From the IMG/VR virus record IMGVR_UViG_3300029595_000010, positions 1 to 46,136 of that record: a DNA stretch of 46,136 nucleotides, one strand, 5' to 3'. Each line of letters opens with the position of its first letter. The stretch's first letter is position 1. The notes under the pieces were generated by a model. It made no database searches. It saw only the letters and a list, made by a program, of their open reading frames with translations, and was not told the DNA's origin. Below are positions 1-46,136 of the stretch, piece after piece. Source of the DNA: a virus. A program made the position numbers and the translations under genes.

Positions 1-99
1 CCGTGGCGGAGGCCGCGCCCCGATCGCCTGTGGCGGAGGCCGCGCCCTGATCGCCCGTGGCGGAGGCCGCGCCCTGATTGCCCGTGGCGGAGGCCGCGC
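1..99. repeat. Terminal direct repeat, left copy (circularisation/assembly overlap)
   Basis: Exact 99-nt match to 46038-46136, read by eye. Confidence 0.9.
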
Positions 100-305
100 C
101 CCGATAGCCCGTGGCGGAGGCCGCGCCCTGATCGCCTGTGGCGGAGGCCGCGCCCTGATTGTCCGTGGCGGAGGCCGCGCCCTGATTGCCCGTGGCGGAG
201 GCCGCGCCCCGATAGCCCGTGGCGGAGGCCGCGCCCCGATAGCCCGTGGCGGAGGCCGCGCCCTGATCGCCCGTGGCGGAGGCCGCGCCCCGATTGCCCG
301 TGGCA
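1..305 (-). repeat. 27-bp tandem repeat array, left part (11 units), coding
   Basis: Invariant 17-nt core gtggcggaggccgcgcc plus a 10-nt segment c[c/t]gat[c/t/a]g[c/t]c[c/t]; period 27. Confidence 0.95.
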
Positions 306-1991: not shown

Positions 1992-2383
1992 GTTGCATCC
2001 TCCTTCTGTCCTCTCCTTTTTCGATTTCTGTTCGTTGCTTCGCAATTCGTTGCCGCTGCTTGGCGTTGCCCTGCTTGGCCTTTCCCCTGCTTTGCATTCG
2101 TTGCTGCGCCGTAGCTGCGCGTAGCCTTCGATGATTTGCCATGCCCCTGCATTGCTGGGCTATTCATTCCTTGCCTTTGCCGTTCTTTGCCACACTAAGC
2201 CAAGCCATTGCAGTTCATTGTATTCCTGAGCGTTTCCATGCTTTTCCTTTGCTGCGCCTATCACCGCTAAACACTGCCGTTGCGCATCTACGCCCATCGG
2301 TACGAAGCAATTCCGTTGCCGTTCACCGCTGCTCTCAGCGACGCGCTTCCCTCGCAAGTCCCTGCGTGGCCTCACCCTTGCAC
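1992..2383 (-). other. About 390-nt untranslated, T-poor spacer with six GCAACG repeats (iteron-like; possible origin or ncRNA)
   Basis: CGTTGC on the plus strand at 2033, 2048, 2064, 2099, 2278 and 2314. ORFs listed here are low-complexity K/Q/R/G strings in several frames. Confidence 0.5.
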
Positions 2384-2971
2384 TTAACCATTCAGAACCT
2401 CGTAGGTAAATCTGCCCTTGCCGGAGTTCCGCCACTGGCCGATGCCGCGTAGGCGGCCATACTCCAGCCATTCCAGGACTGCTTCCTTGTGCGCCTTTTC
2501 GTCGAGCATCACGATTTCAAACTCGATCGTGCTGCCTGCCGGGATTTCCTCCGAGTTTGCAAGGCTTATACGCTCGCCCTGTGCGGTCTGCGCACGAAGC
2601 GGTCTCTGGCATTCGCCGACCTCACCGTTGACCTCAATGGGAATCATGCGCGGCTCTACAAAGATCAGGCCGTCGATGATCTTCTTATAGGCTTTCAGGG
2701 CGCTGGATTTCTTGGATTTCACGCGTGCCAGCATACCGCAGGCGTCTTTGAAAAAGCCTTTGATCTGATAATCGTACAGAATCGGCTGTCCGTCGGTACG
2801 CGGGAAAACGGTTTTTCCCTTTTCGGCGACAGCGTCCGCGCCGAGCGCTGCGATCTCATCCTCAATCGTGCTTGCGTCCGGGGCCTTGCTTGCGATAAAG
2901 TCACGCGCAATGTTCTCGTTGCTCGGCCATGTGCCAAGAACCGGCTCCAAAAATGTTAATCTGACTTTCAT
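2384..2971 (-). CDS. Early protein (195 aa) with a RAMP/Cas6-like C-terminal glycine-rich loop; function unknown
   Basis: GAGGAGG RBS; C-terminus ...EYGRLRGIGQWRNSGKGRFTYEV fits GhGxxxxxGxG; internal ILYDYQIKGFFKDA. Confidence 0.8.
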   Translation of the reverse strand: MKVRLTFLEPVLGTWPSNENIARDFIASKAPDASTIEDEIAALGADAVAEKGKTVFPRTDGQPILYDYQIKGFFKDACGMLARVKSKKSSALKAYKKIIDGLIFVEPRMIPIEVNGEVGECQRPLRAQTAQGERISLANSEEIPAGSTIEFEIVMLDEKAHKEAVLEWLEYGRLRGIGQWRNSGKGRFTYEVLNG

Positions 2972-2981
2972 TTGTTCCTCC

Positions 2982-3182
2982 TCATGCTCCGAGAAACCGC
3001 AAAAACGGCTCTCTCGGGATCTTCACTCTGTGCTCGCTTGTGCAGCAGACCGGGAATCCAAGCTTTTCAGGCTGTTCCCTCGCCATCAAGCGAAGCCATT
3101 GCGGGGTACAGCCGAGCACCTGCGCCGCCTCGCTTGCGAGGATTGTGGGCTTTGACATTGCCCGGATATCGTCCAGCGTCAT
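2982..3182 (-). CDS. Excisionase-family/MerR-like HTH protein (66 aa); candidate Xis or early regulator
   Basis: ATGA overlap with the Cro-like gene; LASEAAQVLGCTPQWLRLMAREQ...VKIPREPFLRFL resembles HTH_17. Confidence 0.65.
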   Translation of the reverse strand: MTLDDIRAMSKPTILASEAAQVLGCTPQWLRLMAREQPEKLGFPVCCTSEHRVKIPREPFLRFLGA

Positions 3183-3388
3183 TTTTCCTCCTTTCTGCTT
3201 CCCTCAATTGCCTCGTCCAGCTCCTGCGGCGTGCAGCCGTAGAGACGGACGAGCTTTTTCTTGTACTTCCGGGCGATTCCGTTTTTACCGAGCTCCCAAT
3301 TCGAGACGGCGATGATCGAGACATCAGCTCGCCTTGCAACATCTTTTTGCAGAAGCCCAGCCCGCGCCCGAAGCTCTTTCAATGTCAA
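3179..3388 (-). CDS. Cro-like XRE-family HTH regulator (69 aa, TTG start)
   Basis: C-terminal part of ORF 3179..3946. GGAGG sits 9 nt before the TTG. LKELRARAGLLQKDVARRADVSIIAVSNWELGKN is a classic XRE HTH. Confidence 0.65.
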   Translation of the reverse strand: MTLKELRARAGLLQKDVARRADVSIIAVSNWELGKNGIARKYKKKLVRLYGCTPQELDEAIEGSRKEEK

Positions 3389-3421
3389 GCGCTCATTCCT
3401 CCATTCCTTAATTAAGTTTTG

Positions 3422-3490: not shown

Positions 3491-3547
3491 ATGACCAAAC
3501 TTTTGAACTTGCCAGTTCCAGACCAAAGAAACGGCGTGATGCGTTAG
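3491..3547 (+). CDS. 18-codon mini-ORF (MTKLLNLPVPDQRNGVMR) with a strong RBS
   Basis: GGGAGGTGG 5 nt upstream of the ATG; too short for the ORF track. Confidence 0.3.
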   Translation: MTKLLNLPVPDQRNGVMR

Positions 3548-3788
3548 GGCAAGGGGCAGCGCCAGAACTGCCAAAGTGAGCGGCGCGTCCATAGAAGCGC
3601 AAGTTCGTTTTGTGTCAGGATGGCATTGCCGAGCCGGTGGAAAGAACTCTACCAATTCGGACGGATGCGAAGTAATGCAGACGACCATCCTGTGCAGCGC
3701 GTTCTGGTAAACAACTCTGGGGAAACCCGCTCGTGAACGAACCACGGGCGGCTTTTCTTTACGCCGCAGCCAAATTAAGAGCTTTATC

Positions 3789-3817
3789 TTGACAAAGCCA
3801 TGTATAGCCGTTATTAT
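3789..3817 (+). promoter_or_regulatory. Near-consensus sigma-A promoter TTGACA-17-TATTAT reading into the cargo/lysogeny genes
   Basis: Hexamers and 17-nt spacer read directly. Confidence 0.6.
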
Positions 3818-3999
3818 GTAAGTGTCAGCCAACAAAATATTGTCCATACGCCCGCAAAACGAAGATTCGGATGGGGATTGGTTTTTTGTTGCCTTGATTA
3901 AGCTCTGTAAGCATATTATATACAACGTTATGTCGTATGTCAACAATACTTACGATGAAATGTTGTACAAATTGGATTGACTTTTTTTGTGAGGTTTTT

Positions 4000-4618: not shown

Positions 4619-5035
4619 ATGTCTAAACGTCTTGTTGTCACGCCAAATATTGAAGAAGTAAATTCTCTCGTAGAGGGGAAAGGATGGAGCAAAGCATACT
4701 TTTCCGAAACAGTTATGAAAAAATCTCGCGGGTGGATTACGGAATGGAAGCGTGCGAAGAACTTTCCCTCCCCCGAAGAAGCTGTCCGTATGTGCGTCAT
4801 GCTGCAAACCACGCCGGAGGAGATTCTGACGGAGCAGGCCGACATTGAGCTTGTGCGCGGGCTGCTGGAGCAGGAACGCGAAAAGGGCATAAAAAAAGAC
4901 CCCATCCCGAAGGATGGGGCGGTGAGTCCTGCCGCGCAGGAGATATTAGACTTTCTGGATTCTGCGTCCGGCGAAGAACTCGCTGACGTGATCAAATATA
5001 TCCGGTATTTGAAAAGCCAGAGGGGGCAAGCATGA
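4619..5035 (+). CDS. XRE-like HTH protein (138 aa); best cI-type repressor candidate; no S24 peptidase domain
   Basis: Starts 4 nt after the upstream gene; KGWSKAYFSETVMKKSRGWITEWKRAKNFPSPEEAVRMCVMLQTTPEEIL. Confidence 0.65.
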   Translation: MSKRLVVTPNIEEVNSLVEGKGWSKAYFSETVMKKSRGWITEWKRAKNFPSPEEAVRMCVMLQTTPEEILTEQADIELVRGLLEQEREKGIKKDPIPKDGAVSPAAQEILDFLDSASGEELADVIKYIRYLKSQRGQA

Positions 5036-30799: not shown

Positions 30800-30913
30800 G
30801 GTTTCTCCTTACGGGATAGGCTTTTTAGGTCGTCGCCATGACCTCCCGCCTGCACTTTTAGGCTTGCAGATAGCCAATTTTTTGTATAAACCCCGCTCAT
30901 GCGGTTTTTACCG

Positions 30914-45588: not shown

Positions 45589-46136
45589 TTACTCTACCTC
45601 CATAAATTCGTCGTTCTGCAGCCGATACCAGGTACCGGCCTTGATCTTCTCGCCGTCGACAATTGCCGCTTTGACGGCAATAATCGGATGTGCCTCCCCG
45701 TCCCATTTGCCGCGCTCAACACAGCAGATCGCGCAGCCAAGTGCGCCCATTGCTTTACACTCATATCCAGCTGCAAGAGCAACACCGGCTTTGCCCGTGG
45801 CGGAGGCCGCGCCCCGATTGCCCGTGGCGGAGGCCGCGCCCTGATCGCCTGTGGCGGAGGCCGCGCCCTGATCGCCCGTGGCGGAGGCCGCGCCCTGATT
45901 GCCCGTGGCGGAGGCCGCGCCCCGATAGCCCGTGGCGGAGGCCGCGCCCTGATCGCCCGTGGCGGAGGCCGCGCCCCGATTGCCCGTGGCGGAGGCCGCG
46001 CCCCGATAGCCCGTGGCGGAGGCCGCGCCCTGATTGCCCGTGGCGGAGGCCGCGCCCCGATCGCCTGTGGCGGAGGCCGCGCCCTGATCGCCCGTGGCGG
46101 AGGCCGCGCCCTGATTGCCCGTGGCGGAGGCCGCGC
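45589..46136 (-). CDS. C-terminal part of the nonapeptide-repeat protein (continuation of 664->1)
   Basis: Repeats then ...[73 protein letters not shown] at 45591-45589 abutting the exonuclease ATG. Confidence 0.8.
45795..46136 (-). repeat. 27-bp tandem repeat array, right part (12 units plus a partial one)
   Basis: Same core and variable positions as 1-305. Confidence 0.95.
46038..46136. repeat. Terminal direct repeat, right copy
   Basis: Identical to 1-99. Confidence 0.9.

Follow-up and report, generated by a model that had tools for sequence, protein, structure and literature searches.

The 46,136-nucleotide virus sequence IMGVR_UViG_3300029595_000010 from IMG/VR (hereafter the window, meaning the whole stretch of DNA analyzed) represents a temperate phage of approximately 46 kb, complete or circularly permuted, and very probably carries a locus of the Viral Interference Programmable Repeat (VIPR) type. 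The locus consists of a gene for a 195-amino-acid Vipr-like protein (positions 2384..2971, minus strand) and a putative vrRNA array of approximately 375 nucleotides (2010..2383, minus strand; boundaries approximate). This assignment builds on the fold of the protein, its remote homology to a characterized Vipr, the flanking array on the same strand with its hypervariable positions, and the location of the gene in a phage and outside a CRISPR-cas locus.

This kind of system is already known. VIPR was first reported in 2026, in two preprints that describe Vipr as a phage-encoded RAMP protein of approximately 20 kDa and propose that it predates the RAMPs of CRISPR systems (10.64898/2026.04.26.720920; 10.64898/2026.04.26.720927). 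According to the same source texts, vrRNAs are built from tandem YNNGG pentamers (GGY/NN), with NNNGG, YNNNG, and NNNNG as alternatives, and in the type II examples studied, from Escherichia phage SUSP1 and a Pseudomonas fulva prophage (PDB 36pp), they comprise 9–16 repeats and a structured 3′ tail. Cryo-electron microscopy revealed a right-handed helix in which each repeat is bound by one Vipr protomer and each turn comprises six subunits. The thumb and the G-loop of the protein sequester GGY, the NN bases pair with double-stranded DNA (dsDNA) with every third target base being skipped, and transcription of competing phages is repressed as a result (10.64898/2026.04.26.720920; 10.64898/2026.04.26.720927). 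In SUSP1 Vipr, residues H17 and D177 read the first G of the repeat (G1), and W178 and R179 hold G2 and Y3 (10.64898/2026.04.26.720927). Seven VIPR types with varied array layouts are distinguished, for which accessory vap genes are typical and stand-alone vipr genes have been reported as well (10.64898/2026.04.26.720920; 10.64898/2026.04.26.720927). Against this background, three details of the locus described here may be new: a conserved hexamer every 5–8 array units, natural Vipr–Vipr fusions, and the loss of the G1-reading residues.

A Single-RRM RAMP Protein

The vipr gene has an ATG start codon with the ribosome-binding site GAGGAGG upstream, and the plus-strand translation of the same interval is interrupted by stops. 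Its product contains ILYDYQIKGFFKDA at residues 64–77 and ends in ...RLRGIGQWRNSGKGRFTYEVLNG; a preliminary description, made from the DNA sequence, had quoted the internal segment correctly and the C-terminus without its last three residues. The identical protein is present on 529 contigs, where sources that name it say "hypothetical protein," and its 90% identity cluster has 1190 members. The unnamed family to which it belongs is very large, with at least 7942 clusters at 90% and at least 1735 clusters at 50% identity. A Pfam search of the protein gave no match. The weak matches obtained with the single sequence were all RAMPs, namely Cas7_IIId in PADLOC (E = 0.014), Csm4 in NCBIfam (E = 0.067), and type VII Cas7 and Csm4 in the PDB (E ~ 0.7–0.9). 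With a profile of 54 members of the family (alignment A1), the E-values fell to 3.9e-5 for type VII Cas7 and 8.8e-4 for Csm4, the matching span being the C-terminal strand, a helix, and the G-loop. Furthermore, a 95%-identical phage protein in BFVD bears the automatic name "Cas system-associated RAMP superfamily protein."

The AlphaFold2 model computed from A1 (pLDDT 87.5, pTM 0.81) shows one RRM with a long β-hairpin "thumb" and a glycine-rich loop between helix 2 and strand 4, in the topology β1-(helical insert)-β-α1-...-hairpin 119–143-β-α2-G-loop-β4. Foldseek retrieved 172 PDB matches at E ≤ 0.001 (down to 1e-8), the best 50 of which come without exception from effector complexes of type VII or type III CRISPR systems or from Cas7-11, with TM values of approximately 0.5–0.6; most of these 50 chains are Cas7-sized, and at least one (7uzw_H) is Csm4. 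The RRM fold anticipated in the preliminary description, for which structure prediction and Foldseek had been named as a check, was thus recovered.

Invariant among the 54 aligned homologs are G72, K75, R123, S140, G146, G172, W180, R181, and G186. The glycine-rich loop (residues 172–188, GRLRGIGQWRNSGKGRF; 2408..2458, minus strand) contains the invariant G172, W180, R181, and G186, and both this conservation and its place in the model support its earlier recognition as a RAMP loop. The predicted thumb (residues 119–143, ECQRPLRAQTAQGERISLANSEE; 2543..2617, minus strand), formed by model strands 119–129 and 132–143, is the best-conserved part of the protein; besides the invariant R123 and S140 it includes L125, R126, T129, G132, R134, and E141, which are conserved in at least 90% of the homologs. 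The motif YQIKGFFK (2747..2770, minus strand), with the invariant G72 and K75, lies at the start of RRM helix 1 (model helix 67–81). In a weak hidden Markov model (HMM) alignment it stands opposite FKGALRSA of type VII Cas7, and it is the counterpart of the Cas7 motif GSSxKGxxR, in agreement with the Cas7-type IKG motif pointed out previously.

Natural tandem fusions of two Vipr-like domains were also observed, in proteins of 458 (P0147) and 432 amino acids (P0167) that retain the IKG/YQxK and QWRNSG motifs in both halves. Such fusions argue for protomers that are arranged side by side.

A Pentanucleotide Array Adjoins the Gene

The array extends from the vipr stop codon to the ribosome-binding site of the next gene and can be parsed into approximately 72 tandem G-C-N-N-N units. 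It is purine-rich with a T content of approximately 12%, and public gene callers place no gene in 2010..2383. Across related loci, GCAA is 4–5-fold enriched in the 400 nucleotides after the stop codon, and successive GCAA sites are spaced by 5/6, 10/11, 15/16, or 20/21 nucleotides, and so forth. Fourier analysis of the array revealed a peak at 5.15 nucleotides with a power of approximately 10 versus a background of 0.5–0.7, and neither a period-3 signal nor power at 10.3 bp; the coding sequence next to the array has period 3 only. No other place in the 46-kb window scores above 4 (99th percentile 2.6). The repeat-rich untranslated region noted in the preliminary description therefore possesses a periodicity that is far beyond chance and unique in the window.

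In the unit parse, 81% of the units are pentamers and 16% hexamers. The unit logo has G at 95% and C at 64%, followed by three variable positions (positions 3–5) that carry only about 0–0.3 bits, and the base preceding the constant G is not conserved either (A 30%, C 13%, G 35%, T 21%). The hexamers share a conserved motif of their own, G(C/G)AANG and then GCA, which carries approximately 1 bit at positions 3–4 as compared to approximately 0.1 bit in ordinary units. Both in the window and in the arrays of its relatives they recur every 5–8 units, 66% of the gaps being 5–7 units, which corresponds to a super-period of approximately 31 nucleotides. This spacing is considerably more regular (coefficient of variation 0.36) than in 1000 shuffles (mean 0.86, minimum 0.74). 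The hexamer could mark the boundaries of vrRNAs, or it could add one nucleotide per six-subunit turn of a Vipr helix; the main text of the preprint 10.64898/2026.04.26.720920 makes no mention of it. The folding of the array is no better than that of shuffled sequences (z = +1.64 for the window, mean z = 0.0 over 20 arrays). No Rfam family, hammerhead ribozymes included, was found for it, the lone match being a meaningless one to RsmY (E = 0.35).

Linkage of Gene and Array Across Relatives

Approximately 175 related loci were compared, comprising 83 viral loci (at least 72% protein identity), 12 genome loci (54–88%), and another 80 loci whose ranking was centered on a divergent family member. 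The array begins at the stop codon in approximately 78 of the 83 viral loci, and in three others it sits after an inserted open reading frame (ORF) of 202 amino acids. Eleven of the 12 genome loci, which derive from metagenome-assembled genomes (MAGs) labelled Clostridia, Synergistaceae, Atopobiaceae, Coriobacteriales, and Sedimentisphaerales, have an array with a period of 5.05–5.25 adjoining the gene, located either downstream or upstream but always on the gene's strand. An adjoining array of 225–1400 nucleotides was likewise found in 77 of the 80 further loci, as compared to 0.3% of background windows that reach the threshold. The array itself turns over much faster than the protein: 16 loci whose Vipr proteins are at least 95% identical contain seven unrelated arrays.

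Some of the relatives differ in the extent or the placement of their arrays. The longest, of approximately 1400 nucleotides, occur at L109 and L115, and up to approximately 280 units are reached in some relatives. Second arrays are located approximately 2 kb upstream of vipr at L085 (2050–2350) and L086 (2000–2300). In a locus from a Synergistaceae MAG (L091, 3500..4010), the array lies upstream of the vipr homolog and only the G is constant (GANNN/GRNNN units), which fits the NNNNG kind of repeat.

Remote Homology to Characterized Vipr Proteins

In a reciprocal test, IMG/VR was scanned for the bare DNA pattern (GCNNN)x7GC, irrespective of any protein. This returned 120 viral loci, 76 of which encode a protein of approximately 195 amino acids adjoining the array; only one of the 120 encodes a member of the window family. 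Four of the 76 proteins were scanned and all belong to phrog_4652 (E from 1.2e-7 down to 4e-51), a sister family of the window family to which the 76 are assigned. Proteins of this type end in ...G-x-G-D-[WYF]-R-P-x-F-G-R-F, another G-loop, and the phrog_4652 alignment (A3) matches PDB entry 36pp_D, "SUSP1 Vipr protein," with E = 9e-54. As a single sequence, the window protein matches phrog_4652 with E = 0.028. Profile–profile comparison by hhalign linked A1 to A3 with 94.7% probability (E = 5.8e-8, 178 columns) and to SUSP1 Vipr with 78% probability (E = 1.8e-5), GIGQWRN being placed opposite GVGDWRP.

In the latter alignment, Q179-W180-R181 of the window protein face D177-W178-R179 of SUSP1 Vipr, and H17 of SUSP1 falls into a gap. 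The invariant W180 and R181 would thus correspond to the residues that hold G2 and Y3 in SUSP1, and the residues that read G1 have no counterpart. Together with the lack of conservation at the first G of the repeat, this points to an array of the YNNNG kind.

One of the phrog_4652 loci, which is type II-like, differs visibly in its array: at L218 (2100..2450), the GGCNN pentamers come in runs, between which a segment of approximately 40 nucleotides with a hairpin (CTGCATCTCTTCGGAGGTGCAG) recurs. This segment looks like the published vrRNA 3′ tail, in contrast to the tail-less array of the window.

Evaluation of the VIPR Assignment

Several observations weigh against assigning the locus to VIPR. 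The link to the studied Vipr proteins is remote, resting on profile–profile comparison and the common array context, and 36pp was not listed in a PDB HMM search with the A1 profile at E-values up to 10. Unlike the type II systems, the window has one continuous run of approximately 72 units (up to approximately 280 in relatives), with no 3′ tail, pseudoknot, hairpin, or ribozyme. Moreover, the accessory vap gene of typical VIPR loci has no equivalent that is conserved beside vipr in the window family, and clustering of the neighboring ORFs of divergent loci yielded no conserved protein-coding neighbor at all. Finally, targets were sought with 67 non-redundant arrays in 4.9 Mb of local phage loci, allowing skips of 0–3 nucleotides under five rules and in three registers, and in this small database matches were no more frequent than with reversed or shuffled guides; exact gapped seeds were not in excess in these loci either. 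The best mismatch-tolerant match of the window array, 22/24 at the vipr start of L204, was discarded as two short tandem repeats matching each other, and in the scan of all arrays 22/24 scores were equally frequent with reversed or shuffled guides.

The Cas7-like fold might also suggest a different role in the arms race with the host. A phage-encoded Cas7 mimic could enter and poison type III or type I effectors or soak up CRISPR RNA (crRNA), with the repeats being incidental, and the place of the gene in an early operon as well as its best PDB matches, Csm3 and type VII Cas7, would be compatible with such a decoy. However, a decoy would not need an array, and in MAGs of five labelled bacterial groups the gene is consistently accompanied by a pentamer array of its own. 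The period of 5 nucleotides also disagrees with the 6 nucleotides of crRNA–Cas7 filaments, a guide-RNA function has been demonstrated for the sister family, and the well-conserved family comprises as many as 1735 or more clusters at 50% identity, whereas the known anti-CRISPR families tend to be much narrower. We consider a decoy highly improbable. A protein that resembles Cas6 and whose main task is the cleavage of the repeat transcript into small RNAs, so that no guide filament would form, is very unlikely too. RNA cleavage had been suggested in the preliminary description, the conserved hexamer every 5–8 units could mark cut sites, and the protein has an invariant S140 along with E141 and E39, each conserved to 90% or more. 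Yet no entry described as Cas6 appears among the best 50 of the 172 Foldseek matches, no typical Cas6 catalytic residues were identified in the protein, and the homologous surfaces bind RNA in SUSP1 Vipr; besides, processing and guiding are not mutually exclusive.

The non-integer period of 5.15 bp is approximately half of 10.3 bp, and a 6-nucleotide unit, about every sixth one, keeps the phase. For this reason we considered whether the array is a dsDNA element (centromere-like, origin-like, or involved in silencing) that offers approximately 70 direct binding sites at half a helical turn to a DNA-coating protein. This reading, which was set aside once the homology to Vipr became clear and which now appears scarcely credible, is at odds with the missing power at 10.3 bp and with the invariable position of the array on the transcribed strand of the gene, even when upstream. 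In addition, no conserved partition NTPase or replication partner is found nearby, the gene that we take to be a candidate replication organizer (DUF6291; the role of this family is our own reading) is located elsewhere in the phage, and the conserved RAMP surfaces are RNA-binding in every solved relative. A chance origin, in which a low-complexity, purine-rich spacer happens to lie beside an unrelated small protein, can practically be dismissed: the region is indeed purine-rich and T-poor, like the coding strand in general, but the spectral peak is 15–20 times the background, the hexamer spacing is far more even than in shuffles, and the association holds in both directions, from gene to array and from array to gene. 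A TRAP-like binding array, an RNA sponge, a cluster of Chi sites, and a composition that avoids Rho were superseded as explanations by the homology to Vipr.

Proposed Function and Implications

If the locus functions as VIPR, by analogy with type II systems, Vipr protomers would polymerize along the vrRNA, one per repeat, into a helical filament. The thumb and the G-loop would sequester the constant bases, here the G and the following C, and thereby present the variable bases for pairing with dsDNA in a gapped register. We infer from the same analogy that such pairing would block the transcription of a competing phage or prophage, which would be the biological role of the locus. A stand-alone RAMP that acts together with the downstream transcript, as imagined in the preliminary description, is thus in line with what the preprints report for the sister family, whereas nothing points to the Cas6-like cleavage suggested with it. 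The arrangement that was then called unusual is now the defining layout of the described VIPR system.

It is conceivable, although on balance doubtful, that the very large gut-type clade represents an uncharacterized VIPR architecture, in which an uninterrupted array of 45–280 pentamers lacks tails and ribozymes and is instead punctuated by hexamers. The super-period of approximately 31 nucleotides equals one turn of a six-subunit Vipr helix. In such an architecture the hexamer might serve as the handle or processing mark of very short guides with 5–7 repeats each, or supply an extra nucleotide for each helical turn of a single, very long filament; with G1 recognition lost (H17 absent, D177 replaced by Q), the pairing code would perhaps employ three variable bases instead of two. 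The reduced constant motif (G-Y as compared to G-G-Y) and the altered G1-reading residues could make this clade helpful in defining how repeats are read and how many target bases each repeat contributes.

VIPR constitutes a newly reported form of RNA-based DNA recognition, for which two further roles were proposed: that of the viral ancestor from which the CRISPR RAMPs arose, and that of a programmable repressor of very small size. Here, a temperate phage that is common in metagenomes appears to carry it as the third gene of an early operon, beside a putative lysis–lysogeny switch. The preprint started from 2,664 sequences, a number that this clade far exceeds. For phage ecology, this would point to widespread RNA-guided interference between prophages.

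Genomic Context

The phage derives from human-gut-type metagenomes, has close relatives in Clostridia MAGs, and is represented by many related contigs in IMG/VR. Besides genes for an integrase, portal, large terminase, major head protein, and tape measure protein, the window encodes YqaJ, RecT, and SSB; no tRNA was found in it. A promoter-like site on the minus strand (TTGACA-17-TATAAT, 12/12 matches to the consensus; 3943..3915) is followed by a gene for a Cro-like HTH_3 protein, an ORF of 66 amino acids, and vipr. The position of vipr as third gene of the early operon, already recognized in the preliminary description, agrees with independent public gene calls on sister contigs, which have the identical order and then a gap of 393 nucleotides without a called gene. 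As no terminator-like site was detected on the minus strand between this promoter-like site and the array, the cro-like gene, the 66-amino-acid ORF, vipr, and the array are probably co-transcribed.

The 66-amino-acid ORF directly upstream of vipr (2982..3182, minus strand) is a candidate accessory (vap-like) gene only. It matches phrog_6058, a family of unknown function (E = 8e-5), has no Pfam match on record, and by eye is a candidate for the small helix-turn-helix (HTH) proteins of the Xis/AlpA type. A homolog is found in the same position at L022, and most other family loci have other upstream genes.

Two overlapping divergent promoter-like sites of the sigma-70 type, both near consensus, were observed at 3789..3817 (plus strand) and at the above-mentioned 3943..3915 (minus strand), and are flanked by HTH genes at 4619..5035 (plus strand) and ~3182..3400 (minus strand). 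This arrangement, two genes upstream of vipr, looks like a lysis–lysogeny switch. Between these two sites lies a full-length FuFi-1 RNA (Rfam RF02986, 98.5 bits; 3534..3757, plus strand), which is antisense to the long cro-vipr leader and ends in a terminator-like hairpin (3727..3751, plus strand). A second structured RNA, the cis-regulatory motif GP20-b (RF03003, 57.6 bits), is located in the head-gene region (30817..30875, minus strand).

Both ends of the window consist of the same 27-bp tandem repeat, at 1..304 (approximately 11 copies) and 45791..46136 (approximately 13 copies), which indicates circular permutation or terminal redundancy. The region that matches this repeat by position in sister contigs lies inside a called gene for a product of 193–298 amino acids, with DUF7666 and faint collagen matches; it therefore probably codes for a 9-residue repeat of variable copy number.

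Comparison with Known Systems

RNAs whose periodicity reflects protein binding exist outside the RAMP world. The binding sites of TRAP are triplets with spacers of 2–3 nucleotides, and the origin of assembly of tobacco mosaic virus (TMV) has a G at every third base. The folds of these proteins are unrelated to that of the window protein and a guide function is absent, but by analogy their RNA periodicity mirrors the number of nucleotides bound per subunit, as it would in the window array. Closer to the proposed mechanism are the Csf proteins of type IV-B systems, which form a Cas7-like filament on non-CRISPR RNA; unlike the window locus, type IV-B has Cas11 and other subunits, lacks a dedicated periodic RNA, and is encoded on plasmids or chromosomes (PMC7937560). 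No sequence relation between the window protein and type IV-B Csf was found.

With the Cas7 backbone subunits, which are its best structural matches (TM 0.55–0.6, E down to 1e-8), the window protein shares the RRM core, the thumb, the G-loop between helix 2 and strand 4, and a length of approximately 200 amino acids, as seen in type VII Cas7 (8yhd/8z4j) and Csm3 (6xn3/6ifn). Natural tandem fusions are a further common trait, as Cas7 domains are fused in Cas7-11 and in type III-D effectors. Unlike Cas7, no partner Cas5, Cas10, Cas11, Cas14, or adaptation genes were noted by the phage vipr, although not every ORF was scanned for cas genes, and the vipr neighbors examined are HTH regulators and small ORFs without a Pfam match on record, and not a cas operon. 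No equivalent of the catalytic aspartate of Csm3 was identified in the window protein. Furthermore, Cas7 binds RNA of any sequence in 6-nucleotide increments, whereas the RNA unit in the window, as indicated indirectly by the DNA sequence, has 5 nucleotides with a constant G and C.

The closest parallels are to VIPR itself. As in the published systems, the window has a phage-encoded, single-RRM RAMP of approximately 20 kDa with a thumb and a G-loop, a long intergenic pentamer array on the same strand with constant G/Y and otherwise hypervariable positions, and an array that in this clade evolves much faster than the protein. It also has no CRISPR-like array, as the preliminary description had maintained and as TRF confirmed for the whole window; the accompanying statement on cas genes holds to the extent that none were noted, not every ORF having been scanned for them. 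The W and R of the SUSP1 G-loop are retained (W180, R181). The differences to the studied systems concern the reading of the repeat and its punctuation: the window repeat is G-C-N-N-N (YNNNG) instead of GGY/NN, the G1-reading residues of SUSP1 Vipr are absent or replaced in the window family (gap at H17, Q179 for D177), and the arrays of this clade, unlike those published, are interspersed with the hexamer G(C/G)AANG every 5–8 units.

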